Part shown: positions 24,423-43,194 of the stretch, piece by piece
Layout: every line of letters starts with the position of its first letter
Position numbering within the stretch: position 1 is the stretch's first letter
Assembly: GCA_020632075.1 (NCBI GenBank)
Contig: JACKGH010000001.1
Location: 42,133 to 106,132, forward strand
Origin: Candidatus Nomurabacteria bacterium
Lineage (GTDB): Bacteria; Patescibacteriota; Minisyncoccia; Phycocordibacterales; UBA918
DNA: 64,000 nucleotides
Reading direction: 5' to 3'
Program-made: the position numbers and the translations under genes
Notes under the pieces: generated by a model
Database searches by the model: none
What the model was told of the DNA's origin: nothing
What the model saw: the letters and a program-made list of their open reading frames with translations, nothing else

Positions 24423-25868
24423 ATGAGTGAGTTGTATGCACAAACATTAAAGTATTTTCACCTTGCAATCACGGAATTCTTACCGACTCTTAGAGAGTTG
24501 TGTGATAACGTAACAGATGCCACCGTAAGAGAAGAGATAGAAGATTTAATTGAGGCATATGAAGATATTGATGCCAAGATAGAATCTCATGGTCTTAATT
24601 ACGATGACCCTAATCGTTCTTACGATGGAGAGCCTGATGAGATCAAAATTGATATCCCAGACGAAATGATTAAAAACTTGGCTCGTCTTTCTCATCGGCT
24701 ACTCTTTGCTTGGAAAAAACGACTTGTAAAACTTCAAAGAAAAACATATCTCACTGACGCTAACAAGGACGAAATTTACAAACTAGAGAATCTAATCTGG
24801 CCAATAGAGGCTTTACTGAAGGCTGAGTCTTATGTTCTGGGCAAATACGCTAATCTAGGTCCTTTGACTTTTCCTGGGGAAACCTCTGATCATGAAGGTG
24901 GAGTGACAAAAAGACTACATGATTTGCTTGAGCAGATTCATTCTTGTTACTCCTTGGGTGATGCAGGAGTTCTAGAGGGACAGCGTTTATCTGACACAGA
25001 AGAGCATGTGAGAACACAAATGACAGAAATTGCAGACGCTGTTGGTAACGAGGTTTTTCAGTTAAAGGTTAAAAAGCTTAACTCTGGATGGAGAACTATG
25101 CTGAAGAGTGGTTTTCATAATAGAAAGACGGCCGAATCTAAGCTTGCTGAGTGGGAGTCAATAATTAATGACATCTTGAAAAATCTTCATCCAGTAGATT
25201 CAGTTGAAAATATTGTAAAGACAATTAAGAATCGTCTAAAAACCGAAGACTTATTTGTTGAGAGTCGGTCTCAGGATGAAGACCAACATCTCCTTATAGG
25301 TAAAAGGGATGGTAGTCCAGAAAAGGCCCATCTGATCATTGACGGAAAGACCGGCGAGATCCGTGTTGAGGACAATCAGCAAGAACCAACTGAATTGATC
25401 AGTAAGATTGAATCGGTTCTCACACTACGTGATGGTAGAAAAATCAGATCAACACGGGAGTCTCTAGAAGAGATTTCAGATCACGATGCAAAACGACCAA
25501 AATTAGATTTGGAGACAAATTTTTCGGTTTCTGGAAGCAGTGCCGGAAACTTCCTAAAGTTTAAAGTTAAAAACGATGGAGAGGAATCTGCTGTTGATGT
25601 TAAAGCCATTTTTGTAGCCGATGGAGAAGAGGTGGAGAAAATTAGCGTTGCACACAGCATTTCACCAACACAATGTAGTCCTGAAATAAACTATCGTTAC
25701 ACAGATACAATGCTCTTTAATAGTCAGATATCTGATGCGAGAGTAAAATTTGAATACAAGGATCGCGCTGGCAATACTTACTTGTCAGGACGGAAACTCA
25801 TTCAAAATGATCGTGCTGACGGAAGATTTAATATACAAAGTAGACCCGGTGACTATTTTGAAGAATAG
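24423..25868 (+). CDS. Hypothetical protein (481 aa), acidic, no recognised domains.
   Basis: Long AT-rich ORF. It is convergent with the recombinase gene and overlaps it by 16 bp. Confidence 0.5.
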   Translation: MSELYAQTLKYFHLAITEFLPTLRELCDNVTDATVREEIEDLIEAYEDIDAKIESHGLNYDDPNRSYDGEPDEIKIDIPDEMIKNLARLSHRLLFAWKKRLVKLQRKTYLTDANKDEIYKLENLIWPIEALLKAESYVLGKYANLGPLTFPGETSDHEGGVTKRLHDLLEQIHSCYSLGDAGVLEGQRLSDTEEHVRTQMTEIADAVGNEVFQLKVKKLNSGWRTMLKSGFHNRKTAESKLAEWESIINDILKNLHPVDSVENIVKTIKNRLKTEDLFVESRSQDEDQHLLIGKRDGSPEKAHLIIDGKTGEIRVEDNQQEPTELISKIESVLTLRDGRKIRSTRESLEEISDHDAKRPKLDLETNFSVSGSSAGNFLKFKVKNDGEESAVDVKAIFVADGEEVEKISVAHSISPTQCSPEINYRYTDTMLFNSQISDARVKFEYKDRAGNTYLSGRKLIQNDRADGRFNIQSRPGDYFEE

Positions 25869-27196
25869 ATGTTGATTTGCTTATCTTGTAGCACAAGTTT
25901 GCTTTTTAAACAGCCCAGTAACTCTCGTTTTTCATAAATTGGTCTCTTTCTTAGAATGTGCTTAGCGTAATTCCGTATATCAATATCTCTCACACTCACT
26001 TTAGTTGAATCTTCTCCTAACACTGATTTCTGGAACTCATTGTGTGCTTCTAGCTCGGCTTTGATACGATCTTTCATACCAATTTCATCGAGTGAGATTG
26101 TGTCGAGTAGTTGCGCTAGTTGCTCAATCAAATCTTCTTCTCTGATGTAGCCACACTTACAGTGTTTATCGTGGAATTTGCTACAACCGTAGTAGACGTA
26201 GCGATGTGTATTGCCGTTTTTCTGTGTCTTGAATTTTTCGTCAGCGCTTATGGTCGAACCGCAGAGTCCGCAACTAATCATCTTAGTGAAGGCGAATTCT
26301 TTGTTTTGAGTTCTTACTACGTGTTCGTTGGTGAGTCTGTTTTGAACTGCCTTGTACAACTCTTTTGAAATTATTGGGTCATGTTTACCTTTGTACCAGT
26401 TACCGCTACCTTTTGGATACTCAAATTCTCCATAATAGAAGGTGTTTTTGAGGATGATATACACGTTGCTAAGCGTGAGTGGTTTTCCGTTCTTTGTTGC
26501 AAACCCTAAGTCGTCCCGAAGCCAGTGGAATATCTTTCGTCCAGACCAGCCATTGTATGCGACCTTCTCAAATATTTGTTTGATGACGTCTGCTCGTTGT
26601 TCATCAATAATCACTTCGCATTTTCGATTCCTGTCAGGATGATTGAGGTATCCAGTCGGTGCGACTGCGGGCCACAGTCCCATTTCACACCGTGCCTTGA
26701 GACCTCGCTTCACATTGACCACCTTGTTGTCATTCTCAAGCTTCGCCTGTGACCCAAGGATCATGAGAAGGAATTTTTCGTTCGGATTGTTCGTGAATCG
26801 TTGTCCGAAGGTGCGGATTTCGTGCAACAATCCTTGGTCCATGAGATCGACGACCGATCCGAGATCTCCTGCGTTACGGGAGAGACGGTCTGGTGCCCAG
26901 GTCAAAATACCGTTAAACTTGCCACTCCTGATCTCAGCAAGTAGCTCGTTGTATATGGGTCGCTGACCAACCTCTTTCGAGGAATGTGATTCACGTTTGA
27001 TTTCAGTAACGTTGAGTTGCTCACGGGAGGCAAGATCAAGCATCTCCCGTACCTGTGATTCGATCGAGAGGGCTTGTTTATCCTCCTGTTCCGTTGATTT
27101 TCGTGCGTAGAGGCAGTACCTGACGGTTGTTTGTACCTCCACTTTTTTCTCTGTCACCAGAGCGTTGCTTGCGTATGTCTCCATTACCACAATCAA
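25853..27196 (-). CDS. Large serine recombinase (phage integrase-type).
   Basis: Resolvase catalytic domain YCLYARKSTEQED...SIESQ, a recombinase domain, and a zinc ribbon CGLCGS...YYGCSKFHDKHCKCG. Confidence 0.85.
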   Translation of the reverse strand: MIVVMETYASNALVTEKKVEVQTTVRYCLYARKSTEQEDKQALSIESQVREMLDLASREQLNVTEIKRESHSSKEVGQRPIYNELLAEIRSGKFNGILTWAPDRLSRNAGDLGSVVDLMDQGLLHEIRTFGQRFTNNPNEKFLLMILGSQAKLENDNKVVNVKRGLKARCEMGLWPAVAPTGYLNHPDRNRKCEVIIDEQRADVIKQIFEKVAYNGWSGRKIFHWLRDDLGFATKNGKPLTLSNVYIILKNTFYYGEFEYPKGSGNWYKGKHDPIISKELYKAVQNRLTNEHVVRTQNKEFAFTKMISCGLCGSTISADEKFKTQKNGNTHRYVYYGCSKFHDKHCKCGYIREEDLIEQLAQLLDTISLDEIGMKDRIKAELEAHNEFQKSVLGEDSTKVSVRDIDIRNYAKHILRKRPIYEKRELLGCLKSKLVLQDKQINIYSSK

Positions 27197-27240
27197 TGAC
27201 GCAATACCCTGAAGGAGTCTAGGGCATCTGAAGTTGGTAA

Positions 27241-28710
27241 CTAAATCGCATCTGGGCGTCCGATGCCTGCAGTGGCGACTCGAGGGCTGTCTTCAAGAAT
27301 TCTAAGAACGACAATTGCGAAAGCGTCTGCAAGGTCATCATGCGTCTCTTTCCCAAAGCCAACCATTTGTTCGATCAGTTCCTCACATCCGACATCGGGG
27401 AAAAGAATCCTGCCTTCTTTTATGAATGAGGTGGTGAGGCGAAGTCGAGCGCCTTTGTCAGCACGCCCAGTCGGTACTCCGACCACATCGTAACGGTTCG
27501 TATCTAAGACCTGTACGAGTGCTCTTTGGTATCCAACGTCCTCAATGTACAGCTTCACACGGTAGCATTTGTCTTTATGTACTGCGTGCAATGCTTTGAT
27601 ATGTTCGACCTGTTCGGGAAAAGTTAATTGCGCGTTCGTGGGATTGGGTTGAATGTATATCTTCATATTCTTCCCATACCCGTAGACGTAGCCGACCACC
27701 ATAGCGGTACAGTCGGCAGAACTTTTCTCACTGATCGCCAAGTCCACCCCAATGGCAATCTGGTGTAACCCTTGGGATGGGAGTGATGAGTACGTTTGAA
27801 TCCATTGTGGTTGTACCACCTGTTCTGCAGTCGAGATGATTTTCAGCATGTATTCGCGGTACCATGACACCTCGTCACCAGTTTTCTCTTTTTCTGCTTC
27901 AACACTCTCTGTGTCGGGATATTTTCCCGGCCATAGCGGGTTATTATCGACATCTACAATCGGGTATTCACGATACATAGCATTGAGGGAATTCATCTCA
28001 CCAGCTTCTATCTTTCGCTGTAGTCGCTTCAGTACCGAATCCTCATGGAGCAGGTTCCCAACAGCGATGATACGTGTGCGCCTACTACCGGCTGGTATCA
28101 TCTCCCCTGTGAGCCAATCGAATGTCTTGTTTCGTCCCTCACGTGTCTTTACTGAATTAATGTCTTCAATGTCATCAAGGATGATCAGGTCTGGTCGATG
28201 TTCACCGTGACGCATACCACGGATGCTCTGCTCGACTGATGTGATCATGATCTTCACGTTGAGCCGTTTGATAATGAGTGCAGTAGCATTCCCAAGACTG
28301 TTCCGTTCTTCTTCAAACGGCCCAAGGTCTCGCTTGAGGAGTTCGTTGTGCAGAAGTTCGTTTTTTATGTTTGTGAGATATGCCCGCGCCTTTTGTTCGG
28401 TTTGCCCTGCAATGACGATGAATTTACGCTGTTGAACGCCTAAAATCGCCCACAGCACGTATGCAGTGGTGATAATGGTGGATTTAGCTGATCCTCGAAA
28501 CGCAACGATCACCGCAAGCTTCACGCTTTCATCTTGTAGGATGCGGAAGAGGTCAACATGGAAGGGTGCAACCTCATACTCAATGTATTTGTGAAAGTAG
28601 ATCGGAAAAAAGTGTTCGAAGCTTTTTTGCACGAGGTTTCGACGAAGCGAATGGTCGGAGAGTACTTTATCGAAAAAGTCTTCGACACTACTTTTCTTTT
28701 TTCTTGCCAT
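27241..28710 (-). CDS. Phage terminase large subunit.
   Basis: ATPase Walker-A-like AFRGSAKST, a C-terminal RNaseH-like nuclease region with acidic residues (DVGYQ, HDDLADAF), and adjacency to a terS-like gene. Confidence 0.65.
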   Translation of the reverse strand: MARKKKSSVEDFFDKVLSDHSLRRNLVQKSFEHFFPIYFHKYIEYEVAPFHVDLFRILQDESVKLAVIVAFRGSAKSTIITTAYVLWAILGVQQRKFIVIAGQTEQKARAYLTNIKNELLHNELLKRDLGPFEEERNSLGNATALIIKRLNVKIMITSVEQSIRGMRHGEHRPDLIILDDIEDINSVKTREGRNKTFDWLTGEMIPAGSRRTRIIAVGNLLHEDSVLKRLQRKIEAGEMNSLNAMYREYPIVDVDNNPLWPGKYPDTESVEAEKEKTGDEVSWYREYMLKIISTAEQVVQPQWIQTYSSLPSQGLHQIAIGVDLAISEKSSADCTAMVVGYVYGYGKNMKIYIQPNPTNAQLTFPEQVEHIKALHAVHKDKCYRVKLYIEDVGYQRALVQVLDTNRYDVVGVPTGRADKGARLRLTTSFIKEGRILFPDVGCEELIEQMVGFGKETHDDLADAFAIVVLRILEDSPRVATAGIGRPDAI

Positions 28711-29110
28711 AGTGATTTACGGACGAGAGCCGAAGCGCCTCTTTTATGAGACGCTTTTGCTCTTTCGTTAATGGTTCATCAGTCGATACCTTTCCTGAAA
28801 TCTCAAGCTTGTTGCTGTACCGAGAATTGTGCGTGGTCAAATACAAGCGAATTGCTTTAAACTCTCGATCACCAATAAGAGAAAACAGTTGATTCTCCGC
28901 AACATCAGACATAAACGTTCGACCCTCAACAAGCGCATCTTCGACCTGTTTTTTGAAACGCTTGTTGCTATTGATCCAGCGATACACAGTGGCTCGACCA
29001 ACACCCACTTTCTGACATGCTGTCTCGATGGTTGGGGTACGTTTAAGTTGCTCAAGAAACGCTTCCTTGAGTTTCTTTTGCCGAGCGTGAATAGTGTCAC
29101 GCCTGCTCAT
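28688..29110 (-). CDS. Terminase small subunit-like HTH protein.
   Basis: MSRRDTIHARQKKLKEAFLEQL...TACQKVGVGRATVYRWI has a HTH and sits upstream of TerL. The start was chosen at the internal Met to avoid overlap with the MTase. Confidence 0.5.
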   Translation of the reverse strand: MSRRDTIHARQKKLKEAFLEQLKRTPTIETACQKVGVGRATVYRWINSNKRFKKQVEDALVEGRTFMSDVAENQLFSLIGDREFKAIRLYLTTHNSRYSNKLEISGKVSTDEPLTKEQKRLIKEALRLSSVNHYGKKKEK

Positions 29111-29864
29111 ACGGTTTTGCTTTAATGCTGGTAAGTTTCTCGAAGCGGGCAATGATAGTCGCACAGTACTCAGGGTCGAGTTCAATACCTACACACTTTC
29201 GCTTAGTCTGCTCGCAAGCGAGTAGTGTCGTTCCAGAGCCAAGAAAGCTATCGAAAACAACATCACCGACTCGAGTGCTGTTCAGAATCAGACGACGAAT
29301 CAAATCAAGCGGTTTTGTGGTCGGATGCATCTTGCTTTGGTTTGGCTTTGGACACACGAGCACACTCTTATCTTTGGATTTCACAAACTCATGTGTGCCG
29401 TACCAGCCATACACAATCAGTTCATGTTGTGGTGCGTAATCAAGCCGACCTACAACTGCATGCGTCTTCACCCAGATAAGTAACTGGGCAAACTTCACAT
29501 CTAGTTCATTCATCGCTTCTCGCAGCGCAAACACCATCTTGTCTGCGTTGAAGATATAGAGACCATTCTTTCGTTCTAGATGTGATAACACAGGAGCAAG
29601 CCATGCTTTGGTGAATTCGCGATATTCATCGTCACTTTGGATATGGTCGTTGGTAATTACTTTGTCTTTAGCGAGAGTCTGGAAGTTACGTTTACTCTCC
29701 GTTACTGCCACTCCATACGGAGGATCACTTATAACCGCTTTGATCTTTTTATCTCCAATAATCTTGGCTACTAGCTCAGCATTCCGAGCATCACCACAGG
29801 CGAGGACATGCTCGCCAAGCACGAAGATGTCTCCGTGCTTAATTGAGTTTTGTAACTGGCTCAT
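29097..29864 (-). CDS. DNA methyltransferase (N6-adenine/N4-cytosine family, DPPY).
   Basis: Motif IV SDPPYGV and motif I FDSFLGSGTTLLACEQ. Confidence 0.85.
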   Translation of the reverse strand: MSQLQNSIKHGDIFVLGEHVLACGDARNAELVAKIIGDKKIKAVISDPPYGVAVTESKRNFQTLAKDKVITNDHIQSDDEYREFTKAWLAPVLSHLERKNGLYIFNADKMVFALREAMNELDVKFAQLLIWVKTHAVVGRLDYAPQHELIVYGWYGTHEFVKSKDKSVLVCPKPNQSKMHPTTKPLDLIRRLILNSTRVGDVVFDSFLGSGTTLLACEQTKRKCVGIELDPEYCATIIARFEKLTSIKAKPYEQA

Positions 29865-31119
29865 GTGAGAGTTTCTTAAATCGGTTGATAATCACCTGAC
29901 AGAAGACAGGCTCTATTTCGTTGAGGTACGCAGTACGCTTTAGCTGCTCGCAAGCTGAGAGAATACTCCCTGAGCCAGCGGTCAGGTCGAGTACAGTGTC
30001 TCCTGGTTTGGTACAACGGCGTAATGCTTTTTCGTGCAGTGTCGGATTCTTCTGGGTTGGATGTTCATATTCGCTACCAGGAATCCGCTTTACGAGCCAG
30101 ATGTTGAAGAGGTCTAGAATGTCGTCAGTTAGCCGATTGCCAGAAGAGACTTCTTTATTAATCACTTCGTTAAGATTCTTCAGTGAGTCATTCAGATACG
30201 GCTTACCAACCGTGCCGTACACGCAATATTCAGTAACTTTGTTGAATGCCACCTTCGGGGTGGGTGACTGATTGTCTTTGATCCAAATACAGAGCCGCTT
30301 CGAATCTACTCCTAGCTCTCGGTAGAGTTGCTGGAATAACCAAACGTATCGCTCGTCGGTCCAAAACATTACATGAGCGTCTGGTTTTGCTACCGACAGC
30401 GCATTTTGCATGATGGTGCGGATAAACAACTGATACTCATCGTCAGATTTGTTGTCATTTGTAGTACCACCGTACTTTGCTTTATTCCCGACACCTTTGT
30501 CGTATGACAATCCTATATTGAATGGCGGGTCGTCGTTTATGAGATCTATTCGCACACCATTAGTGAGTTGCTTTACTGTCTCGGGATCTAAGGCATTTCC
30601 ACACATCAGACGATGTCTACCAAGAGAAAAATAATCTCCTGGTTTGATGTTTGTATCCTGTGCGTTCTCTACCTCTTTCTTTTCATCAAACTCATCATTC
30701 ACAATCTCTAAGTTGTCATCGAATATGAATGACAAATCTTGTGACTCAAATCCAGCTAGTAGGAGTTCATCAATGTTGAAATCTGATGCGAGCTTTTCGT
30801 AGTCCCACGTTCCGCCTGAGCGGTTTGAGGTGAGAAGATAGTCACGAAATTCAGCTTTAGTGAGTGGTCGATTTGGGACTCGTACTTCAATCTCTTCTTC
30901 TTCACGACCAAGGAGCGATAGTGCCAAGACCCGCTGATTTCCAGCCACCAAGGTTCCGTCTGTGTTAATACAAGGCAGCTCAGCAACGTTGAACTTGTTG
31001 AGACTACGCTTCAGTCCCTCTAGTTGAGAGTCTGTGAGTTTACGGGGATTTTTCCCGTATCTAATAAGGTCTTTAACTTTCCGACGTTCAGTACGCCAGA
31101 CTAATTTTTGTTTAGCCAT
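29839..31119 (-). CDS. ParB-like nuclease domain fused to a DNA methyltransferase (N6A/N4C family).
   Basis: The N-terminus RYGKNPRKLTDSQLEGLKRSLNKFNVAELPCI...AGNQR is ParB/Srx-like. It is followed by DDPPFNIG (motif IV) and LDLTAGSGSILSACEQ (motif I). Confidence 0.85.
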   Translation of the reverse strand: MAKQKLVWRTERRKVKDLIRYGKNPRKLTDSQLEGLKRSLNKFNVAELPCINTDGTLVAGNQRVLALSLLGREEEEIEVRVPNRPLTKAEFRDYLLTSNRSGGTWDYEKLASDFNIDELLLAGFESQDLSFIFDDNLEIVNDEFDEKKEVENAQDTNIKPGDYFSLGRHRLMCGNALDPETVKQLTNGVRIDLINDDPPFNIGLSYDKGVGNKAKYGGTTNDNKSDDEYQLFIRTIMQNALSVAKPDAHVMFWTDERYVWLFQQLYRELGVDSKRLCIWIKDNQSPTPKVAFNKVTEYCVYGTVGKPYLNDSLKNLNEVINKEVSSGNRLTDDILDLFNIWLVKRIPGSEYEHPTQKNPTLHEKALRRCTKPGDTVLDLTAGSGSILSACEQLKRTAYLNEIEPVFCQVIINRFKKLSHEPVTKLN

Positions 31120-31506: not shown

Positions 31507-31788
31507 ATGTTTAATCTGAGCAATAGTAGTATCCTATATGATAACGTTGTGTTATATTGCAACAAGGCGTATAGTCAAATTATGAAAAGCGAGTCGCAAA
31601 AATTGGGCAATAACCTCAAACGAATTAGAACTGAGAAAGGTATTTCGCAGGGTGACATTGCTCGTGAGCTTGAGGTAAGCAGAAGCTTTATAAGCAATAT
31701 CGAGAACGGTAAAACAAACCCGACTTTGTCGACTATTTCGAAACTTGCAAAAACTGTTGGAGTCTCTGTGAGCGAATTAACAAAATAA
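31507..31788 (+). CDS. XRE-family HTH transcriptional regulator.
   Basis: LKRIRTEKGISQGDIARELEVSRSFISNIENGKTNPTLSTISKLAKTVGVSVSEL. The true start is probably MKSESQ at 31582. Confidence 0.75.
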   Translation: MFNLSNSSILYDNVVLYCNKAYSQIMKSESQKLGNNLKRIRTEKGISQGDIARELEVSRSFISNIENGKTNPTLSTISKLAKTVGVSVSELTK

Positions 31789-31798
31789 TTTTAATAAC

Positions 31799-32305
31799 AT
31801 GACATTCGACCCACAATTAATCTTATTATTCATCAACACAGTCGCTGTCATTTTTGTAATCGCACTGTTTTTAACTAAGAATGATACTGCCAGAAACGGT
31901 GACGCTGGTGATATTTACGAGAGGATTAAGAATGATATCAAATTCACATTCGAACCAATGGTCGATATACCACTTGGTGTCGAGGAAATCGTCGACCTTG
32001 CGGTAGAAGTGTGGCGAATGGAACAAAGGTTGTCTAAAGCGTCCGAAAATATACCAGAGATACACCAACGCAGTCTTTCAAATTCAATAAATCGTCTAAA
32101 GAGTTACTTAAATAAGTACGATGTAGAAATCCATGACTATACAGGACAAAAATATAACGATGGATTAAATTTTGACATTCTCTCCAGAGAGCAGGACCCG
32201 ACTCTTGAATCACCAATCGTAAAAGAAACAGTTGAGCCTACCATTACATGCAGAGGTAAGGTGGTGAAGAGGGCAAAAATCATATTGGCATCAAATCAAA
32301 AATAG
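31799..32305 (+). CDS. Hypothetical N-terminally membrane-anchored protein; first gene of the cargo operon.
   Basis: TM LILLFINTVAVIFVIALFL. The next gene starts 3 nt after its stop. Confidence 0.5.
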   Translation: MTFDPQLILLFINTVAVIFVIALFLTKNDTARNGDAGDIYERIKNDIKFTFEPMVDIPLGVEEIVDLAVEVWRMEQRLSKASENIPEIHQRSLSNSINRLKSYLNKYDVEIHDYTGQKYNDGLNFDILSREQDPTLESPIVKETVEPTITCRGKVVKRAKIILASNQK

Positions 32306-32307
32306 TT

Positions 32308-34800
32308 ATGGCAACTCGAAATATACAAATTGGAATTGATTTAGGTACCACAAACTCAGAGGTGGCAATTAATAATGGATCTGCTATTGAAATAATCAAG
32401 AATGGTTTTAATGATGAGTATACTCCTTCAGTATTTGGTGTAGATAAATCAAAAAATAAAATCGTGGGTAAAAAAGCCTATGAAAGATTGTTTAAATATT
32501 CATCAACCGAAGAACTAAATAACAACAAAGCTGAGGTTAAGAGAATCATGGGAACCTCAGAGACAGTACGTTTTGATAGAACAAATGAAGAATTACAACC
32601 TGAAGAGATTTCCGCAGAGATTTTGAAGTCACTAAAAGAAGACATTTTAAGAAAGTATAGTGACTTTGAGACTACGTCTGCTGTCATCACGATACCCGCT
32701 CACTTTTCTGTTGTTCAAGCTGAAGCAACCAAGAGAGCTGGAAATATAGCTGGATTTAATTATGTTGTTTTGCTCCAAGAACCAATCGCAGCCGCAATCG
32801 GTTACGGTTTTATGAATGCTAAGAACGAAAACTGGTTAGTATATGATCTTGGCGGCGGCACATTTGATGTTGCATTAATTTCTGCAAAAGATGGAAATCT
32901 TACTGTTGTTGCTCAAAACGGTGACAACTTCTTAGGAGGAAAAGACTTCGATAAATTGATAATCGATAAAGTCTTAATTCCAAAAATCAAAGAAGAATTC
33001 AACGTACCCGACCTAAAAGATGATCAAGTCGTTTTCTCTAAACTCAAGAATCTAGCAGAGACAGCAAAAATTGAACTAACCTCATCTGATAAGACTAATA
33101 TCCAAGTAGAAAACATTGGTGAGGATATGAATGGAAATGAAATTTATCTATCCATTGATTTCACTCGGTCAGAATTTGAGAAGCTTATCAAACCTCTAGT
33201 AGAACGAACAATAAAACTGAGTCAGGAAACAATTAAAGAATCTGGCATTAAACAGAGTTCAATCAATAAAATCATACTTGTTGGCGGACCTACATTAATT
33301 CCTTATATAAAAGATCGCCTTGAACGAGACCTAAAGATTGAGGTTGATACCAGTGTCGATCCTCTAACAATTGTTGCAAGAGGGGCTTGTATCTACGGAG
33401 TCAGTCAACAAATACCTGAAGAATTTCTGGAAAAAAGAGCTGATGCCGCTGAATCAATGTCGGTAAAATTACACTTCGACTCACTGTCATCTGATATTGA
33501 GACAACCATTAGTGGTGTAGTTGAGGATTTGAGGGACTCGGAAGAAGAGTATTATATTCAAATCCAAAGCGACTCAGGTACCTATAGTGGCCCAAAGATT
33601 AAAGTTAAAGGAGGTAAATTTTTTGACACTATAACCCTCGACAAAAATAAAACTAACCTATTCTGGATTTATCTTTTCGATTCTGAGGGAAACACTATTC
33701 AGATTGACCCTGACTCCTTTACTATTATTCACGGATTGTCTATATCTGGTGCGCCAATCCCTCATTCTGTTGGGGTTGGAGTTGTTAAGAAGGATTTTAA
33801 GACAGGTATTGCTACCGAAGTATTTGATAAATACTTTTCAAAAAATAGCACCTTGCCACTCGAAGAGACAAAAATCTTTAAGACTCTCAGAAAGCTTAAA
33901 AAGGGCGACAAAGATAACGCTCTACCTATCAATGTATATGAGGGAGAGTCTGACAGACAGGACAGAAATCAAAGAATCTGCAGCCTCAAGCTAACTGGTG
34001 AGCAGATACCCTATGATCTTCCTGAAGGAACTCCTGTTGAAATTACCATAAAGATTAATGAATCTCGCGAAGTCTCAGTTAATGCTTACATTGAGTCAAT
34101 TGATCTTTCTGTAGATGCCCGGGCAACTATTCATGATGAAGAACTGGACGTTGAGCAAATGAAGTCAGAGCTTGAACTACAAAGAAATCGAATTTCGAAT
34201 GCCAAGGAAAACTGCTCGGATGCTGAACGTAGAGATCTGGAAAACACATACGAATCCGTAGACGATAGTTTGCAAAGAGCTGAGGACGATCAGGATGAGA
34301 AAAGAAAAGCTAATAAGCAACTCAAAGATTTAAAGATTCAACTTGACTCCATCGAGCGAGACAAAGAAATGCCACAGCTAACTCGTGAATTTCGTGATGG
34401 CCTAATGAATGCAGACGAAACAATTAGAGAACTTGGTGATAAGGAAGAATACAATCAGCACAAAGAATTACTTGAAGCATTAAAGGCTGAAGGTGAAATT
34501 GCAATTGAAAACAACGACAAACATCTATTGGCTCGAGTGAATGAACAAATTGATGAGCTTAAGCAAAAGATTGTCTTTTCAAATCCTGCTGCATGGGCCT
34601 ATCTTTTCCAAAAGATAGTGTCAGAAAATAAGAATTTTATTAGCGACAAAGAAGCTGAATATTTCATCAACAAGGGACTTAGGTCAATTGAGGTTGGTGA
34701 TGTCGAAGAACTAAAGCGTTGCGTTAGAGGATTGCTGTTGTTGCTACCCCCTGAACAACAGCACATGATTCAAAGTTCAATGTCAGGTATAACTTATTAA
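32308..34800 (+). CDS. Non-canonical Hsp70 (830 aa): a complete actin-like NBD, a long insert, a degenerate SBD-beta and a helical C-terminus.
   Basis: IGIDLGTTNSEVA (phosphate 1), DLGGGTFDVAL (phosphate 2), ILVGGPTLIPYIKD (adenosine motif), and the SBD-like INVYEGESDRQDRNQRICSLKLTGEQIPYDLPEGTPVEITIKINESREVSVNA. Confidence 0.8.
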   Translation: MATRNIQIGIDLGTTNSEVAINNGSAIEIIKNGFNDEYTPSVFGVDKSKNKIVGKKAYERLFKYSSTEELNNNKAEVKRIMGTSETVRFDRTNEELQPEEISAEILKSLKEDILRKYSDFETTSAVITIPAHFSVVQAEATKRAGNIAGFNYVVLLQEPIAAAIGYGFMNAKNENWLVYDLGGGTFDVALISAKDGNLTVVAQNGDNFLGGKDFDKLIIDKVLIPKIKEEFNVPDLKDDQVVFSKLKNLAETAKIELTSSDKTNIQVENIGEDMNGNEIYLSIDFTRSEFEKLIKPLVERTIKLSQETIKESGIKQSSINKIILVGGPTLIPYIKDRLERDLKIEVDTSVDPLTIVARGACIYGVSQQIPEEFLEKRADAAESMSVKLHFDSLSSDIETTISGVVEDLRDSEEEYYIQIQSDSGTYSGPKIKVKGGKFFDTITLDKNKTNLFWIYLFDSEGNTIQIDPDSFTIIHGLSISGAPIPHSVGVGVVKKDFKTGIATEVFDKYFSKNSTLPLEETKIFKTLRKLKKGDKDNALPINVYEGESDRQDRNQRICSLKLTGEQIPYDLPEGTPVEITIKINESREVSVNAYIESIDLSVDARATIHDEELDVEQMKSELELQRNRISNAKENCSDAERRDLENTYESVDDSLQRAEDDQDEKRKANKQLKDLKIQLDSIERDKEMPQLTREFRDGLMNADETIRELGDKEEYNQHKELLEALKAEGEIAIENNDKHLLARVNEQIDELKQKIVFSNPAAWAYLFQKIVSENKNFISDKEAEYFINKGLRSIEVGDVEELKRCVRGLLLLLPPEQQHMIQSSMSGITY

Positions 34801-34808
34801 AATAGAAT

Positions 34809-36269
34809 ATGAATCTCTTAAAAGATAATGCATACCACATATTAGGCTTAGATACTTCAGCAAGCCAAAAAGAGATCTCCAAGAGGTCAAAAGAAATATT
34901 AACGCGCCTAAAAATTGACGATGTACCAGAGTACGAAATTGACTTAAATTTCTTTTCAAATTTTAGAACTGAGAATTCGGTAAAACTGGCACAATCTAAT
35001 TTATCGAATCCTAAGAAATTGATAAAAGAATACTTCTTTTGGTTTCAGGTTGCAGATAGCGTAGACGAAGAAGCTGTTGATTTTTTCAGAAAAGGACAAT
35101 TTGGTGAAGCTGCAAAAATATGGAAGGAGCATAGCCAAGGAGATACCATAAAGTCATTACTCTATAAAAAGAATTTGGCGATTTTAGTTACAATTCTCTT
35201 GTACAAATCAAAAGATGATGACCTCCTTAACAAGTCAGTCTCATTGTGGAGTGAATTAATAGGGTCTGATAAATTTTGGAACGGGTTTTCAAAAGTGTAT
35301 AAGTTACATGATGAATTGGGTTCTGACTCAGAAGTTATTAGTGATTTCAAAAGTAAGGTTGCCGATTATCTTTCTGACATTTATGCAGAGTTATCTTCAA
35401 TTCATCAGGACAAAGACTTTGTTACTTTGTTCGCAAAAAATTTTGGACTTAAGGGTGAAAAGATGGAGGCTGATGTATTGAACCCAATCTATAAAGTGAT
35501 AAATGACGCCGTTGAAGAATTGGATGCACTTGGCGTGAGTGATGACGGGGTGTTAGATCAAAAAGAAACCGCAGAGATTAAGCGACTTATTGGCATCATC
35601 CAATCTGAACTAAATAAGCTAATAGATCTTGGTTTGTACGATGATAGTAAGATTAAACTTGTACGTGACAGAGCTGCTGCTACCCTAAGAAAACTAAGTA
35701 TTGAGGTAAACAACAACTTAAATGAGGCTGATATTGCATTAGGTTTAAGTAAAATTGCCGATAGCATTTCAGGAACAACCAGCTTTAAGAGCAAGGTCCA
35801 GCAAGACATTAAAACTCTTGAAGAAAATCAAGCCTATAAAGCAAAGGAAGAAAAGCAAAAGGCTATTATTGATCCAATTCTGGCCACTTTTAAAGCTGGC
35901 GACTCAGAGAAGGCACTTCAGACAATTAATGCTTACATCTATAACGAAAGTACTGACCCTGATTTAAAAGAAACGTTATTAGAAATTAAAAAAGTTATTG
36001 AGGAACGTATCGTCCAACATGGTAAACCAGTAAAAAGTGCCCCCACCTTGTTTACTCTTAACGGTTTCGGTACAAAAATATATGGTGACACTTTGTATGT
36101 CACACTTTTGTTCATACCAGTAATTCCTCTCTCTCGATACTCCTTGGTTAATAATGGTGACAATTACAGTTTCCAGGGGAAGTTGGAATTGCGAGAGTGG
36201 CAAAAGATTTGGAAGGTGGTGGGTTTGATCGCGGTCGGTATTATCGTGCTTATGATGTTTAGCAGCTAG
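34809..36269 (+). CDS. J-like domain protein lacking the HPD motif, with a C-terminal transmembrane anchor.
   Basis: N-terminal AYHILGLDTSASQKEISKRSKEILTRLKIDDVPE aligns with DnaJ YYEILGV...EIRKAYKRLAMKYHPD, with HPD replaced by IDD. The C-terminal TM is WKVVGLIAVGIIVLMMF. Confidence 0.6.
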   Translation: MNLLKDNAYHILGLDTSASQKEISKRSKEILTRLKIDDVPEYEIDLNFFSNFRTENSVKLAQSNLSNPKKLIKEYFFWFQVADSVDEEAVDFFRKGQFGEAAKIWKEHSQGDTIKSLLYKKNLAILVTILLYKSKDDDLLNKSVSLWSELIGSDKFWNGFSKVYKLHDELGSDSEVISDFKSKVADYLSDIYAELSSIHQDKDFVTLFAKNFGLKGEKMEADVLNPIYKVINDAVEELDALGVSDDGVLDQKETAEIKRLIGIIQSELNKLIDLGLYDDSKIKLVRDRAAATLRKLSIEVNNNLNEADIALGLSKIADSISGTTSFKSKVQQDIKTLEENQAYKAKEEKQKAIIDPILATFKAGDSEKALQTINAYIYNESTDPDLKETLLEIKKVIEERIVQHGKPVKSAPTLFTLNGFGTKIYGDTLYVTLLFIPVIPLSRYSLVNNGDNYSFQGKLELREWQKIWKVVGLIAVGIIVLMMFSS

Positions 36270-36273
36270 GCTT

Positions 36274-36867
36274 ATGAATGATCACTTAGACTTCAACACA
36301 GATTTTTTAAATAATCCTGTTTCTGGTAAGAATCAGGGTCCATCTAATGATAACCAACCCAAAAATGGTGGGGGTAAAAAAGGTTGGATTATAGCAGCAG
36401 TCATCTTCGGTGTCCTTATTGTTATTGGTGCGATGGAAGATTCTGGTTCAACAGGTTCAACTTATACACCAACAACCAACTCGACGTACAGCAACAACAC
36501 GAACACTTCTGCTGATCATTCATTAGTATTTGATGGGCAAACTTTTAGATGTTCTGATTATCACTATGATAAAGCGATGGCATTGAGGCCAGACGCAACA
36601 CTGAGCGCACAAATAGATTCAGAGAGTGCAGCTCTAGATTTGCGTATTAGTAGTCTAGACTCAGAAGCGGCTAGGATAGACGCAATGTATGTTGATGAGT
36701 ATAGCCAGTGGTCGATTGATAACTACAACGCAGCTGTTGATGCATATAATGTTAAGAAAAATAGACTACAAGCCGATATTGATAGTTGGAATCTAAAAAA
36801 CACTTCTTTTAATAGAAAAATTGATGCTTACAACAATTACCTAGATACTAACTGCCGACCACAATAA
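36274..36867 (+). CDS. Single-pass membrane protein with an extracytoplasmic domain (197 aa).
   Basis: TM WIIAAVIFGVLIVIGAM. A Thr/Ser/Asn-rich linker follows, with repeated AYN/YN motifs. Confidence 0.5.
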   Translation: MNDHLDFNTDFLNNPVSGKNQGPSNDNQPKNGGGKKGWIIAAVIFGVLIVIGAMEDSGSTGSTYTPTTNSTYSNNTNTSADHSLVFDGQTFRCSDYHYDKAMALRPDATLSAQIDSESAALDLRISSLDSEAARIDAMYVDEYSQWSIDNYNAAVDAYNVKKNRLQADIDSWNLKNTSFNRKIDAYNNYLDTNCRPQ

Positions 36868-36870
36868 ATT

Positions 36871-37926
36871 ATGTCAATTCAAACAAAACCAATTCTACAT
36901 AATGGCTTTGAAATCAGAGAAGGCCTAAAAGTAAAGAGTCGTATCGACAAGGTATTTTTCACTGAGATTTATCACCTTGATAACGACACATACTTCTACC
37001 TCTTCCTAAATCTCAATCCTAACGAAATTATCGATAAGCGAGGGCGGTATGAATTAGTGAGGATTAATATCTCTTCTAAGGAGTGGATTGGAGCTATTGT
37101 AAAAAGTAATACTAACCCCGCTTCTGTCATTGAGGAGTTAACTACTCTGCGAGGATTTGATCAGATTGCTGGAATGCAAGAACTAAAGAATCTATTGATT
37201 GCAGAAGTGATAAATCCGCTACGAGATCCTGCTAGATTTGAAAAATTCAAAGTGTCTATACCTAACGGAATTTTGCTTTACGGTCCTCCGGGATGCGGAA
37301 AAACCTTCATCGTAAGAAAACTTGCGGAAGAGCTGGGATATAACTTTTTTGAAGTAAAACACTCAGACCTTGCAACGCCTTTTATACATGGATCAGTAGG
37401 TAATATTGGTAAGGTTTTTGAAACCGCAAAACAGAATTCACCAGCTGTTGTATTTTTTGATGAAATCAGTGGTCTTGTACCAAACCGTCAAAATTTGAAT
37501 GATTCATCTTCACACAAAGAGGAAGAGGTTAACGAGTTTTTGATTCAGCTTAACGATGCTGCTGATAATAATATTCTAGTTGTAGGTGCAACGAACTATA
37601 TTGATCGAATTGACCCAGCGATATTGAGGCCAGGACGAATGGATAAAAAGATTCATGTCCCACCACCTGACGCAGAAGCCAGAAAAGAACTATTCAAGCT
37701 TGGTCTTTCAGGTCGTCCGCACGATGAGAATATCGACTTTGAACACCTAGCTAAAATAACCGATGGCTACAGTAGCGCTGACATTATTGAGGGTATAGTT
37801 GAAGGAGCTGCTCGTCTGGCTGCGAACATGGATAAACAAGAAATTGATCAGGAACTACTAGAAAAAGAAGCAGCTAAACTTAAACCTGTAGAAGAAGAAA
37901 AGCCGAGATTTGGTTTCGGTGCGTAA
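36871..37926 (+). CDS. Classical-clade AAA+ ATPase (CDC48/FtsH/Vps4-like module) with an approximately 100-aa N-domain.
   Basis: Walker A GILLYGPPGCGKTF, Walker B VVFFDEISGL, and a second region of homology with Arg fingers GATNYIDRIDPAILRPGRMDKKIHV. Confidence 0.8.
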   Translation: MSIQTKPILHNGFEIREGLKVKSRIDKVFFTEIYHLDNDTYFYLFLNLNPNEIIDKRGRYELVRINISSKEWIGAIVKSNTNPASVIEELTTLRGFDQIAGMQELKNLLIAEVINPLRDPARFEKFKVSIPNGILLYGPPGCGKTFIVRKLAEELGYNFFEVKHSDLATPFIHGSVGNIGKVFETAKQNSPAVVFFDEISGLVPNRQNLNDSSSHKEEEVNEFLIQLNDAADNNILVVGATNYIDRIDPAILRPGRMDKKIHVPPPDAEARKELFKLGLSGRPHDENIDFEHLAKITDGYSSADIIEGIVEGAARLAANMDKQEIDQELLEKEAAKLKPVEEEKPRFGFGA

Positions 37927-37937
37927 TTTAGTAATCA

Positions 37938-38600
37938 ATGGAAATCGACTCAAAAGAAATCATTCTGCAATTGTTGAAAGGGATGTGGGAAATGAAGTCA
38001 CTATACCTCATGCTGTTTGGAGTGGTTGTCTTGGCCTTAATTGCAAGAATCCTTATGGATTTGATGAGCCGACAAAGTCAAATTAAGTGGTTTCTAGGCA
38101 AGCAAAAAGTTCAGGACTTGCAAAAGCTCACACCTTCACAATTTGAGGAATATATCGCCGAACTATTTAAATCACTTGGCTATCAAGCAGTTGTAACTGG
38201 CGGTAAGGGTGATGGAGGAGTCGATGTTGAAGCAGAAAAAGACGGCATCAAACACTACATTCAATGCAAAAAATTCATCACATCAAAAGTACCCGTTGGA
38301 GCAGTGCGTGACTTCTACGGTGCTATTGCAGATAGGATTGATGGTGGAAAGGGTTATTTCATCACTACAAATGTTTTTACACTTGATGCTGAACATTTTG
38401 CAGAAGATAAACCAATTGAACTAGTTGATAAGTTCAAGTTGATGGAATACATGCACATGGCGAATGTGGAAGTTCCAGAGTCCACTCCCGTCGTGTGTCC
38501 AAAGTGCGGATCCGAGCTTATTCGTCGCAGTGGTAAATACGGTCCCTTTATGGGCTGTAGTACGTATCCAAAGTGTGACTACACAAAGAAACTCGCATAA
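37938..38600 (+). CDS. Membrane-anchored Mrr-type (type IV restriction-like) PD-(D/E)XK nuclease fused to a topoisomerase-type C4 zinc ribbon.
   Basis: N-terminal TM LYLMLFGVVVLALIARILM; Mrr_cat-like FEEYIAELFKSLGYQAVVTGGKGDGGVDVEAEKDGIKHYIQCKKF; and C-terminal CPKCGSELIRRSGKYGPFMGCSTYPKCDY. Confidence 0.65.
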   Translation: MEIDSKEIILQLLKGMWEMKSLYLMLFGVVVLALIARILMDLMSRQSQIKWFLGKQKVQDLQKLTPSQFEEYIAELFKSLGYQAVVTGGKGDGGVDVEAEKDGIKHYIQCKKFITSKVPVGAVRDFYGAIADRIDGGKGYFITTNVFTLDAEHFAEDKPIELVDKFKLMEYMHMANVEVPESTPVVCPKCGSELIRRSGKYGPFMGCSTYPKCDYTKKLA

Positions 38601-38606
38601 GGTTAT

Positions 38607-39677
38607 ATGGATAAAGAAGTCGCATATAAGCCAAACACAACAGCCTGTGAGGATCTACCATATCCAATAGTATTATATCCCGGTTTCTACGGCTCCTTTT
38701 TCGCATTTAAGCAGAATAAAAAAGCAAAACCTCACTTTTGTTCATGTGCGTACGAAGCAATAGAAAACTACATTAGAATCAGACAGTCATCTGAGATTCC
38801 ATTGAACTCATACCCTGATCGTATGTACTTATTGGATTCCCACGATTTTCCAAAATCTGTTGTCCAGACTTTGATGCAATCCAACATACCTGACGATCAG
38901 GTGTTGGCGAATCTTAACTTTGCTGACAAGTTATGTCATGAGTGCAATTTGCAAACTCCTTCGTATCGCTATTGTGTAGAGATGTACGGAGGTGCATTCA
39001 AGCAAAATTATGGTTGGTACATAGGAAAACAAGCATACGAGTGGGGTTTTGATAGGAGTAAAAGTAAGTTGTTGATCGACAGTTTGTGTCCTGAAGATCT
39101 TCTTGAGTTGGTCAATGATGAATCCTTCCAGTATGGTAGAAAGAGACGAAGAGAAATTGCAGATAAAACGTTTGAGTTCGATAGAGATTTTGCAAACATT
39201 TCAGATGTAGATCGACAAGAATACAGTGCTTTGTTCCAAGAAGCTCGAAATATTGATAAAAGTCTCTCAAAACACTACAGAAAGATCAACAATGTTGTTG
39301 AGAACGAAGTGCGAAGGAAATTTGGTCATAAGAATGTTGGTGAAGCATGGACTAGTGAAACAATTCTCTACTACATAGTAAAAAAACTATATCCTGAACA
39401 TACAATCCACCGTCACTATCGTCCTGACTTTTTAGATGGTCTAGAATTAGATATTTACATTGAGGAGCTGAATATAGGTATTGAGTACCAAGGCATTCAG
39501 CACTACAAGCCAGTAAAACACTGGGGTGGTGAAGATGCGTTAAAAAAGTTGCAACAAAGAGATAAAAAGAAGAGGAATATTTGCAAAAAGATTGGAATTC
39601 CACTTATCTATTTTGAACATGATGAGGGATTGAGCGATAGTCTAGTTGTAGCGAAGTTAAGTGATTATGAAAGTTAG
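38607..39677 (+). CDS. Hypothetical protein with a C-terminal DUF559/Vsr-like PD-(D/E)XK endonuclease domain.
   Basis: The C-terminus HRHYRPDFLDGLELDIYIEELNIGIEYQGIQHY...RDKKKRNICKKIGIPLIYFEHDE aligns with the DUF559 core (YIVDF...LVIELDGGQHY...RD..L...G..VLRF.N.E). Confidence 0.5.
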   Translation: MDKEVAYKPNTTACEDLPYPIVLYPGFYGSFFAFKQNKKAKPHFCSCAYEAIENYIRIRQSSEIPLNSYPDRMYLLDSHDFPKSVVQTLMQSNIPDDQVLANLNFADKLCHECNLQTPSYRYCVEMYGGAFKQNYGWYIGKQAYEWGFDRSKSKLLIDSLCPEDLLELVNDESFQYGRKRRREIADKTFEFDRDFANISDVDRQEYSALFQEARNIDKSLSKHYRKINNVVENEVRRKFGHKNVGEAWTSETILYYIVKKLYPEHTIHRHYRPDFLDGLELDIYIEELNIGIEYQGIQHYKPVKHWGGEDALKKLQQRDKKKRNICKKIGIPLIYFEHDEGLSDSLVVAKLSDYES

Positions 39678-40239
39678 AATAAAGAAATTGATACAAAGAT
39701 TAAAAACTGACAAGAAACTGGCAGGTCTTTTTTTTCTATATGTTGCTACGGTGGTCGTTGTTTCTTATTTATTTATTCAGTGGCCTGAATATGCAAACAA
39801 GACTACCTACATTCTTTTCCTAATTTCTCTAATGCTGGTCACGTTGTTTACTTGGTCAATGGCAGCGTTGGCTATCTTCAGGTCTCTTCTAGTTGTTGGT
39901 GCAGGACTATCACTAGTGTTGTTCATTGCTCAATCGTACTGCGCCTTACCTCTTAACGAACAGGTTGCAGACGACTCTCTACAGAGCTTGATTGGAATAA
40001 GTGTTTTGTTTATAGGCGTGATGTTTTTTAATCGACTGTACCGCGAGCTGTTTGGTAATCCAGAATCGAAGCGTGAATTTGATAAGCTTGGTGCACTTAA
40101 AGTCTTTCGGGAAGCAAACAAAGGTAAGGATTCTGTTTTAATCCTTGTTCTTTACGCTTCCTTTATGGGTCTTATTCTAGGTCAGTTGTTCCAAGTTTTG
40201 TTCCCGATTTTTATTAACCTTTGTGTTTATCAACCATGA
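39667..40239 (+). CDS. Multi-pass membrane protein (about 5 TM).
   Basis: Overlaps the upstream stop; has five hydrophobic helices. Confidence 0.5.
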   Translation: MKVRIKKLIQRLKTDKKLAGLFFLYVATVVVVSYLFIQWPEYANKTTYILFLISLMLVTLFTWSMAALAIFRSLLVVGAGLSLVLFIAQSYCALPLNEQVADDSLQSLIGISVLFIGVMFFNRLYRELFGNPESKREFDKLGALKVFREANKGKDSVLILVLYASFMGLILGQLFQVLFPIFINLCVYQP

Positions 40240-40883
40240 CTGAATTATTAAAAATAGTACACAAATGTGTAGACAAGATTAAAGACGATTTTCTTTTGTT
40301 TTCAGTTGCAACTTTAGTATTAATGGTTGCTTTTCCAGAAGCAAAGATGACAACCTTCATTGTCTATGGCACTGCGGTGCTTATTTATGTTGTCGTAACT
40401 CTGATTAAAAGTAGAAAGCAGGAAACGAACAATCGTTTTTTACAGAATGTAGATGATTTCTTAAACGATCCAGCTTCTTGGGAACGTCGCACTATTGATC
40501 ATTCAGATGTCTATTTCTATTCTAGAGATAACAATTACAAAATTGTAACTGGTGACGAGTCAATACGTGAGTGGGAACCAAACATTGAACCTTGGATGCA
40601 AAATTTTCCAGACCCTCATGTTTCTGAGTACAACGTGTATTTAAAGCATGGAGAGAACACAATTGCAGAGTATAAATTTGTATATTGTGATGGTGCAAGA
40701 TATTTTATGCCCTTACCTAAAAAGCGTTGTGCTGAACCAGGAGATGATTTCAGATGCAATAGGTTCGAGTATATTTGGAATCGCAATTCAATCGAATATA
40801 AAATTGGTACTGTAATAGGTGATTTTTATAGGTATGAAAATCTGGAAGAGGTAGCTAGATTCTGCGGTATCGTGATTGAGTAA
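40236..40883 (+). CDS. Membrane-anchored hypothetical protein (2 TM plus a soluble domain).
   Basis: ATGA start/stop overlap with the upstream gene. TMs are FLLFSVATLVLMVAF and FIVYGTAVLIYVVVTLI. Confidence 0.5.
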   Translation: MTELLKIVHKCVDKIKDDFLLFSVATLVLMVAFPEAKMTTFIVYGTAVLIYVVVTLIKSRKQETNNRFLQNVDDFLNDPASWERRTIDHSDVYFYSRDNNYKIVTGDESIREWEPNIEPWMQNFPDPHVSEYNVYLKHGENTIAEYKFVYCDGARYFMPLPKKRCAEPGDDFRCNRFEYIWNRNSIEYKIGTVIGDFYRYENLEEVARFCGIVIE

Positions 40884-40897
40884 TCTATGGATTTTGT

Positions 40898-41845
40898 ATG
40901 TATAAAAACTTATATGACAAACATAAAATTAGAGGTGCCTTTATTACAGAAGACAATAAGAAGTTAATAGTAAACTTCGAGTTTTCAAACAAGGTAGTAT
41001 CCTTTAACAAAGGTCAGCTAATCGAAACGACTGAGACCTTAGAGAGGGCGGAAGTGAAAACTGTACTAGAGAAAGATAAGTATTTTGTATGTGTTGTTTC
41101 GACACCTGAAGCTGACCTCGATTTTCTTTATAAGATTTCCCTCGCGATTGCTTATGTAGTTGGTCAGAATTTTGAACTTCAATACTACTTCAAAGAATTT
41201 CCATACTATCCAACAAGTCACCACTGGAACATTGATAGCTGCAATCCAATATCGCGAAGACTTTTTGAAGACCTTTTACGTTCACCAAGTAACACTATCA
41301 GATTTTTACTTTCATTATTGCGCGATGACGCAACTGCTTTTTCACAACTTGTACCAACAATGTTGGTAGTAAACGCATACAATCACTCAGAAGTAAGCTT
41401 TATTACAGAGTTTGGTCTATTACAAAAGCTTTCCAAGAGGCACGATGCCGACAGTAAGTTGTTCACAGCCGAAAATGATCTAGATAAGCTATCACAGTTT
41501 TCTAATACAATACTTGAAACACTCCAGTTAGATTATACTGATATCAATATACCTGCACTAGAAAAGAAGTTATCGACAGAAAGCTTAAATAGTAAAACCG
41601 CTACAAACGAAAAGATTGTTTCGTATTTAAACAGTTTTGATAAAGAAAGAATAAAGTCGTGTGCTGAATATGTCCCACAATGGAATAAGTTGAGAAGTTC
41701 TGCACTTGTGACTCACGGAGGCAGACCGATCAATGTCAAAGATGCAGATAAACGTGGAAAAATGCACAAACTTCACGAACTATTATTGGACATAGTTAGT
41801 CTAGAGGTAAATGCAAAATATGGAGATGCTGGCATTCTAGACTGA
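40898..41845 (+). CDS. Hypothetical soluble protein (315 aa).
   Basis: In-operon ORF; no motif recognised. Confidence 0.45.
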   Translation: MYKNLYDKHKIRGAFITEDNKKLIVNFEFSNKVVSFNKGQLIETTETLERAEVKTVLEKDKYFVCVVSTPEADLDFLYKISLAIAYVVGQNFELQYYFKEFPYYPTSHHWNIDSCNPISRRLFEDLLRSPSNTIRFLLSLLRDDATAFSQLVPTMLVVNAYNHSEVSFITEFGLLQKLSKRHDADSKLFTAENDLDKLSQFSNTILETLQLDYTDINIPALEKKLSTESLNSKTATNEKIVSYLNSFDKERIKSCAEYVPQWNKLRSSALVTHGGRPINVKDADKRGKMHKLHELLLDIVSLEVNAKYGDAGILD

Positions 41846-41865
41846 TGAGCATACAATGAGGACTA

Positions 41866-43194
41866 ATGGAGTATCTCAAACCAAAACACTACTACACTGA
41901 CCTCTACGATAAACATACAGTCGAACGCTGTCGTCGTATTGAAAGTACGAATAGCATGCCTGATGCAGATCGCCCGAAGAAAGTCAGTAAGAAAGAAGCT
42001 GAAGCAATCAACGACTGGGCACACAACCTCATCCTTACCTTTGAGAAAGGGTCTCGCTGGTCCAATAAAGAAAAGACCATTAATGATTGGATGGAGAGAG
42101 ATAGAAGACGAGACGAGCTATTAGAATCAGCCAAAGCGCCAGAAGATATCCGCTGCCTCACGTGTCGTAATCGTATGGAACCTAATCACCGACAGCTTTG
42201 GCACGGTGATGAAGATAAGCCAGATCGTGTCCTCTTTATGTATGACTGCCCGAACCAGTGTCTTCCACGGCGGGCATTTTTTGATGATGGTAAGGAATGG
42301 CGCAGTACCCCACACCTCTGTGCTCGTTGTGGCAATCCAACCAATCACACGGTCTCTGATGACAAAGAGAAAATGGTCACAACGTACACTTGTCCAACTT
42401 GTCATCATGTTGAAGTTGATGAGTACGTCTGGAATAAGCCAGAAGATGAATACGATGAACACTTCGCGACGGATCGTGATCGATTCTGTGTTTCAGATGA
42501 AGAAGGGAGAAATATAGAAGACATGAAATGGCAAATGGAGCGCATGGGTGACTTTGCTAAGGAGTGGGAAGAGAAAGAAAAAGCTCGTGCCAAGAAACTA
42601 GAGGAGAACCCAAAAGGATTTCACCTTGAGGGTGCTGGCTATACTTGTTCGATTTGTCGCAATAGTACCCCTGCAGGAGACAACTGGTACGATAAATGGG
42701 GTATCAAATGTCTAGTGTGTCAGTGGTCCATTGATCATAAAGAAATACCAGCCTCACTCGCCAAGAATGAGGATAGCTGGTATCGAAAGTATGACTTTGA
42801 ACACTATTTTAATGTGAAGGGTCAGACGCTCAATAAATGGGTTAGAGAAGGTCTGGTAAAAGCTCGAACGGTGAGTCGTTACGGTGAAGGTGTGCATACG
42901 CAAGTATTCCTTGTCAAAGATAACAAGGATTTCCTGCCTCCTAAGAAGTTACTTGAATCAAAGCGGGGTCGAGTTGTAGAGAATGGCAAAGAGGAGGTGC
43001 GAATACTGCCTTGGTACTGCTTTGGTGATCCGCACGAAATATTGAAAGGATACAAGATCATGGATTATTTACGAGTACTGTCTCCAGAAGAGGTAGAACA
43101 ACGAGAGAAAGAACGTCAGGAGAAAGCGGAGAAACGCAGACTGCATCGTGAGAAAGTAAAAGCTGCTAGAGAGAAGCGCAAGAAGCGTAAATGA
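41866..43194 (+). CDS. Multi-zinc-ribbon protein with a Lys/Arg-rich C-terminal tail.
   Basis: Three CxxC...CxxC pairs (CLTCRN...CPNQC; CARCGN...CPTCHH; CSICRN...CLVCQW), a GGA-rich RBS, and a tail EKRRLHREKVKAAREKRKKRK. Confidence 0.55.
   Translation: MEYLKPKHYYTDLYDKHTVERCRRIESTNSMPDADRPKKVSKKEAEAINDWAHNLILTFEKGSRWSNKEKTINDWMERDRRRDELLESAKAPEDIRCLTCRNRMEPNHRQLWHGDEDKPDRVLFMYDCPNQCLPRRAFFDDGKEWRSTPHLCARCGNPTNHTVSDDKEKMVTTYTCPTCHHVEVDEYVWNKPEDEYDEHFATDRDRFCVSDEEGRNIEDMKWQMERMGDFAKEWEEKEKARAKKLEENPKGFHLEGAGYTCSICRNSTPAGDNWYDKWGIKCLVCQWSIDHKEIPASLAKNEDSWYRKYDFEHYFNVKGQTLNKWVREGLVKARTVSRYGEGVHTQVFLVKDNKDFLPPKKLLESKRGRVVENGKEEVRILPWYCFGDPHEILKGYKIMDYLRVLSPEEVEQREKERQEKAEKRRLHREKVKAAREKRKKRK

Follow-up and report, generated by a model that had tools for sequence, protein, structure and literature searches.

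The genes described here lie in a window of 64,000 nucleotides, the whole stretch of DNA that was analysed. Two of its open reading frames (ORFs), 32308..34800 (830 aa) and 34809..36269 (486 aa), both on the + strand, had been recognized in a preliminary description as encoding an Hsp70 of non-canonical type and, as its partner, a J-like protein that lacks HPD and is anchored in the membrane. Both ORFs are real, and the pairing is supported; since each is a member of a large conserved family, neither is a chance ORF. They are two members of a conserved, uncharacterised five-gene cassette, whose order is a transmembrane (TM)-anchored GrpE-like protein, the long Hsp70, the tail-anchored HPD-less J-like protein, a single-pass TM/coiled-coil protein, and a classic-clade AAA+ ATPase (Table 1); with the HTH regulator, the genes number six. 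All cassette domains are present and subject to purifying selection.

Table 1. Features of the cassette and its surroundings (positions in the window).
Feature	Position	Strand	Remarks
Mobile-element backbone	25853..31119	-	Large serine recombinase, TerL, TerS-like protein, two DNA methyltransferases
Cro/C1-type HTH regulator	31507..31788	+	Opens the co-directional array; Pfam HTH_3, E 3.2e-18
N-terminal TM helix and divergent GrpE-like domain	31799..32305	+	Putative private nucleotide-exchange factor
Hsp70, nucleotide-binding domain (NBD), aa 1-365	32308..33402	+	Catalytically intact; canonical J-interface residues replaced; Pfam HSP70, E 2.9e-89
Hsp70, connector and conserved beta-rich insert, aa 366-483	33403..33756	+	Between NBD and SBD-beta, replacing the simple VLLLD linker
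Hsp70, SBD-beta, aa 484-606	33757..34125	+	phmmer against PDB: human HSP70 SBD, E 2.6e-5
Hsp70, alpha-helical lid and long C-terminal helical extension, aa 607-822	34126..34800	+	Disordered tail, terminal conserved SGIT-x
J-like domain, aa 1-76	34809..35036	+	HPD loop replaced by a loop of ~19 aa, aa 36-54
J-like protein, all-alpha helical-repeat (TPR/SNAP-like) body, aa 77-404	35037..36020	+	
J-like protein, beta-meander, aa 405-460, and C-terminal TM helix, aa 463-485 (tail anchor)	36021..36269	+	
Single-pass TM protein	36274..36867	+	Ser/Thr-rich linker, predicted extracytoplasmic coiled-coil with two conserved Cys
Classic-clade AAA+ ATPase (FtsH/Cdc48/PAN-like)	36871..37926	+	Beta-rich N-domain, without protease domain; Pfam AAA, E 5.6e-35
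Non-conserved cargo, same tight co-directional array	37938..43194	+	Mrr-like REase with Zn-ribbon, HNH-like, TM, PDC-S50-like, two unknowns

The Hsp70 and its J-like partner

The Hsp70 is complete: its NBD is catalytically intact, a conserved insert of beta structure follows, the SBD-beta is full and retains its pocket, and the lid is long. Its AlphaFold2 model aligns over the whole length to full-length DnaK and BiP (Foldseek, E 2e-41). The nucleotide-binding motifs are those quoted earlier (IGIDLGTTNS, aa 8-17; DLGGGTFD, aa 180-187; VGGPTLIPY, aa 325-333), the Pfam HSP70 profile aligns to aa 8-364, and DnaK residues D8, T11-N13, K70, P143, E171, D194, T199, and D201 are all retained and invariant in the family. 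DnaK R167 and N170, the residues that read HPD, are lost, being replaced across the family by V (95%) and Q (100%), respectively, and the acidic hairpin 206-217 (DnaK numbering) is shortened. The insert had been put at about 250 aa; its real length is about 100-120 aa (aa 366-483), since the SBD-beta begins near aa 484 and the INVYEGE motif noted earlier sits in the middle of this domain. Strands are predicted in the insert between aa 387 and 475 (AlphaFold2, pLDDT 80-92), its conservation is 0.74 versus 0.79 for the NBD, and a conserved IYLFD (aa 454-458) aligns with the DnaK linker VLLLD (MAFFT). Two further segments quoted earlier, INVYEGESDRQDRN (aa 541-554) and VEITIKINESREVSVNA (aa 577-593), were both found, but the view of a degenerate SBD did not hold: Foldseek and residue comparison with DnaK show SBD-beta, hydrophobic pocket, and lid to be intact, and pocket residues I401, F426, V436, I438, and I472 correspond to V, F/Y, L, I, and V/I, which are conservative changes. 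The lid helices span aa 615-823 in the AlphaFold2 model; S826, G827, I828, and T829 are near-invariant in the tail (aa 823-830, pLDDT <50).

The product of the J-like ORF begins with a domain that is homologous to the J-domain but has diverged from it and has no HPD; a body of helical repeats comes next, and a TM anchor closes the C-terminus. J-domain chains take the top 10 of the 13 PDB matches to its N-terminal profile, each individually weak (E 0.055-0.5), and the N-terminus aligns with the J-domain of E. coli DnaJ over helices I-II (hhalign, E 3e-4). Pfam DnaJ is the most frequent weak match in the family (13 of 32 members), with sub-threshold scores (14.5 bits versus a cut-off of 27.8). 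The domain is modelled with helices at aa 20-35, 55-65, and 68-76 (AlphaFold2). HPD is missing in either register, with K35-I36-D37 in the ungapped and V39-P40-E41 in the alternative one, and its His is absent in 120 of 121 aligned homologues. The domain had been called degenerate; however, the J-like region, HPD-replacing loop included, is the best-conserved part of the protein (conservation reaches 90% or more at P40, Y42, D45, F49, F52, R53, and E55), which argues for selection for a new function, that is, remodelling and not decay. The domain may serve either as a passive tether or as a non-canonical trigger of the Hsp70 ATPase. At the other end, AlphaFold2 predicts strands at aa 415-459 and a helix at aa 463-485 that is consistent with a TM anchor; the juxtamembrane module differs among subfamilies, and a hydrophobic C-terminal stretch persists in the aligned examples. 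The family comprises 2,271 clusters, and neither Pfam nor PADLOC holds a model for it.

Operon partners and mobile-element setting

The GrpE-like gene lies directly 5' of the Hsp70 gene in about 55 of 58 loci. Its product in the window matches Pfam GrpE weakly (E 0.044, profile positions 57-164 of 165; 13.9 bits versus a cut-off of 25.8 for this protein alone), and the same model matches 18 of the 20 family members (best E 9.2e-9). By hhalign, 103 columns align with E. coli GrpE (E 0.025), and a PDB profile search with the protein found no GrpE chain. The TM/coiled-coil protein has no family match in the libraries searched; its homologues occupy the same cassette position in 34 loci, and in several J-like homologues (P0072, P0079, P0080, and P0081) its ectodomain is fused to the J-like C-terminus, which argues for a functional linkage of the two proteins. 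The AAA+ gene, found at 50 of 58 loci, encodes a protein with a Walker A motif (138-145), a Walker B DE (197-198), sensor-1 N242, and conserved R253/R256, and its NCBIfam matches are FtsH_fam (2e-55), CDC48 (1e-53), and PAN (1e-52). TM segments are predicted in three of the five cassette proteins. The HTH regulator has PADLOC matches to HTH_VI, control-protein, and capH-like models, and 15 of the 59 related loci have a homologue of it in front of the cassette. No more than 2-3 other loci combine the downstream cargo genes (Mrr_cat, E 1.5e-26; phrog_19778, 1.9e-70; PDC-S50, 5.9e-14) with the cassette.

Of the 58 related loci, most of which come from ultra-small (CPR) bacteria, about 55 retain the order GrpE-like, Hsp70, J-like, (TM protein), AAA+, which is thus conserved between distant lineages. 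Across CPR classes, and in some MAGs from outside CPR, Hsp70 identity is uniformly 50-60%; part of the non-CPR assignments may reflect binning errors. A CPR mobile-element family carries the cassette as low-GC cargo: GC is 0.35-0.41 in the cargo versus 0.44-0.48 in the backbone and ~0.49 in the host. The backbone genes match Pfam Resolvase, Recombinase, Zn_ribbon_recom, and N6_N4_Mtase, TerL matches phrog_38 (E 3.5e-78), and sibling homologues of the backbone genes also match ParB-like PHROG families. The sole recurrent neighbour of cassette loci is a large serine recombinase, found no more than 10 kb away at 29 of 59 loci. The TerS-TerL backbone is present in all 80 TerL-seeded metagenome sibling loci, in most cases accompanied by methylases and recombinase, and none carries an Hsp70 or J-like gene (0/80); the cassette is thus dispensable for the element. 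Between TerL and recombinase, the siblings hold type I RM, Eco57I-type RM, SWI2/SNF2, KAP NTPase, ThsB-TIR, and nuclease genes; in the window, the Mrr-like REase and PDC-S50-like genes come after the cassette. Because the cassette varies in its position relative to the backbone, adjoining MT2 in the window and lying past the recombinase in most other loci, a hotspot shared with RM cargo is not proven. A search for att sites as element boundaries found none.

Known systems and possible roles

The proposed resemblance to the E. coli HscC/DjlC pair stands for architecture, a tail-anchored J protein beside a specialised Hsp70, and fails for homology. As with HscC and the tail-anchored DjlB and DjlC, the cassette Hsp70 is encoded beside a J-type protein of ~480 aa that a C-terminal TM segment anchors, an arrangement that implies chaperone action at the membrane (PMC8215388). 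However, hhalign detected no homology of the J-like protein to DjlC (E 0.62), and DjlC retains His-Pro (HPE in K-12), whereas the J-like protein has no HPD; HscC (556 aa, no insert, short lid) shares only 30% NBD identity with the cassette Hsp70, and its locus has neither the GrpE-like gene nor the AAA+ gene.

We tentatively favour a private membrane-tethered Hsp70 cassette, carried as mobile CPR cargo, whose role would lie in conflict (anti-phage or anti-mobile-element) rather than in housekeeping proteostasis, because it is placed where sibling elements hold restriction-modification, Thoeris-TIR, and KAP-NTPase genes. Such a defence role, drawn from genomic context, is guilt by association; PADLOC gave no known defence-family match for the Hsp70, J-like, GrpE-like, or TM protein, and no recognisable toxin or nuclease effector was found conserved alongside the cassette among its recurrent neighbours. 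Hsp70-family proteins do occur in predicted defence loci, namely GAP1-N2 GTPase systems (HSP70, GrpE, DnaJ-FNIII) and CoCoNuT CnuD (PMC7159879, PMC11090510). The GAP1-N2 systems likewise combine an Hsp70-family protein with GrpE and a J-domain protein; however, both kinds of system are built on GTPases or McrBC-type GTPases and nucleases, and GTPase, tubulin, McrB/C, and HEPN components are all missing from the cassette. The ATPase motifs of CnuD are degenerate, whereas the cassette Hsp70 retains an intact ATPase site and is partnered by TM proteins and an AAA+. The latter resembles IetA (PADLOC, 2e-33; NCBIfam IteA, 3.4e-32) of IetAS, reportedly a defence system described by Gao and colleagues in 2020, but it scores 112 bits versus a cut-off of 510 for IteA, lower than for the FtsH, Cdc48, and PAN modules, and the cassette has no IetS-like subtilase.

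An accessory role in membrane proteostasis appears unlikely. The cassette would then be a horizontally spread Hsp70/AAA+ bichaperone, DnaK-ClpB-like or FtsH-extraction-like, that refolds or extracts damaged membrane or envelope proteins in small-genome CPR cells and has no part in conflict. A full Hsp70 cycle kit with an unfoldase, the anchoring of three components, and the lack of a conserved effector would fit, and mobile elements are known to carry stress-tolerance disaggregases (cf. ClpG, ClpL; PMC8129007). As in DnaK-DnaJ-GrpE with ClpB, the Hsp70 has its full set of catalytic residues, its lid, and the SBD-beta pocket, and it stands beside J-type, GrpE-type, and AAA+ proteins, the last potentially able to thread clients. 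The differences lie in the membrane-anchored co-chaperones, the absent HPD with a replaced R167/N170/acidic-hairpin interface, the ~100-aa beta domain between NBD and SBD, the single-ring classic-clade AAA+ in place of the two-ring ClpB, and the gathering of all five genes in one mobile operon. Co-chaperone interfaces diverged from the housekeeping type would be needless for mere reinforcement of DnaK, the cassette is sporadic, atypical in GC, and carried amid defence genes, and diversification of the J-like juxtamembrane module is a pattern typical of sensors.

It is quite improbable that the chaperones serve the life cycle of the terminase-bearing element, for example, in replication-complex remodelling or particle assembly or exit, as lambda exploits DnaK/DnaJ/GrpE and as the closterovirus Hsp70 homologue exemplifies. 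The element that carries the cassette does encode TerL, TerS, and a serine integrase, and the cassette is apparently driven from a Cro/C1-like regulator that is transcribed divergently from the backbone genes; against this, the cassette is missing from all 80 same-backbone siblings, occurs in only 1 of 2.9 million IMG/VR contigs, and has no backbone gene within 10 kb in about half of its loci.

Very improbable, too, is a translocation motor in which the tethered Hsp70, the anchored J-like protein, and the GrpE homologue drag a polypeptide across the membrane or extract it from there. Motors of this type are the mitochondrial PAM (mtHsp70, Pam18, HPD-less Pam16, Mge1) and Sec63/BiP. The parts list and the tethering match, the TM partner has an ectodomain, and PAM is known for HPD-less J-like subunits (PMC8605242, PMC11349236). 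The mitochondrial presequence-translocase motor, whose set includes Tim44, is nevertheless an analogy only: the cassette is bacterial and mobile, encodes single-pass anchors and no channel-forming protein, has no Tim44-like tether, lacks a second, HPD-bearing J protein of the kind that PAM requires in Pam18 beside Pam16, and contains an AAA+ that such a motor leaves unexplained. Finally, bacterial DnaK paralogues have been proposed as nucleotide-exchange factors or holdases for DnaK (PMC13580251), but a comparable Hsp110-like role towards host DnaK, with foldase activity lost, is hardly credible, since 830 aa with an extra insert, extended C-terminal helices reminiscent of Hsp110 and Grp170, and missing J-interface residues are set against an operon that supplies its own GrpE-like and J-like partners, invariant catalytic and pocket residues, and top structural matches to DnaK and BiP.

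Proposed action of the cassette

In the favoured reading, the Hsp70 ATPase cycle would run at the inner face of the membrane with private co-chaperones; hydrophobic stretches and their flanking charges, read off the sequences, predict that the chaperone domains face the cytoplasm. A non-canonical interface may have co-evolved, with HPD gone from the J-like protein and R167, N170, and the acidic hairpin gone from the Hsp70. Such a private interface, suggested solely by these residue changes, would shield the module from host DnaK/DnaJ/GrpE, an insulation that any horizontally moving cassette would need. The helical-repeat body of the J-like protein and the variable juxtamembrane/ecto module may be what selects the client or detects a signal at the membrane, and the client would be captured first by the Hsp70 and then unfolded or extracted by the AAA+ ring. 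Taken together, the operon partners (GrpE-like, TM/coiled-coil, and AAA+ proteins) and the mobile-element setting, neither of which the preliminary description had noticed, alter the most likely identity of the Hsp70/J-like pair, which may belong to a candidate chaperone-based defence module.

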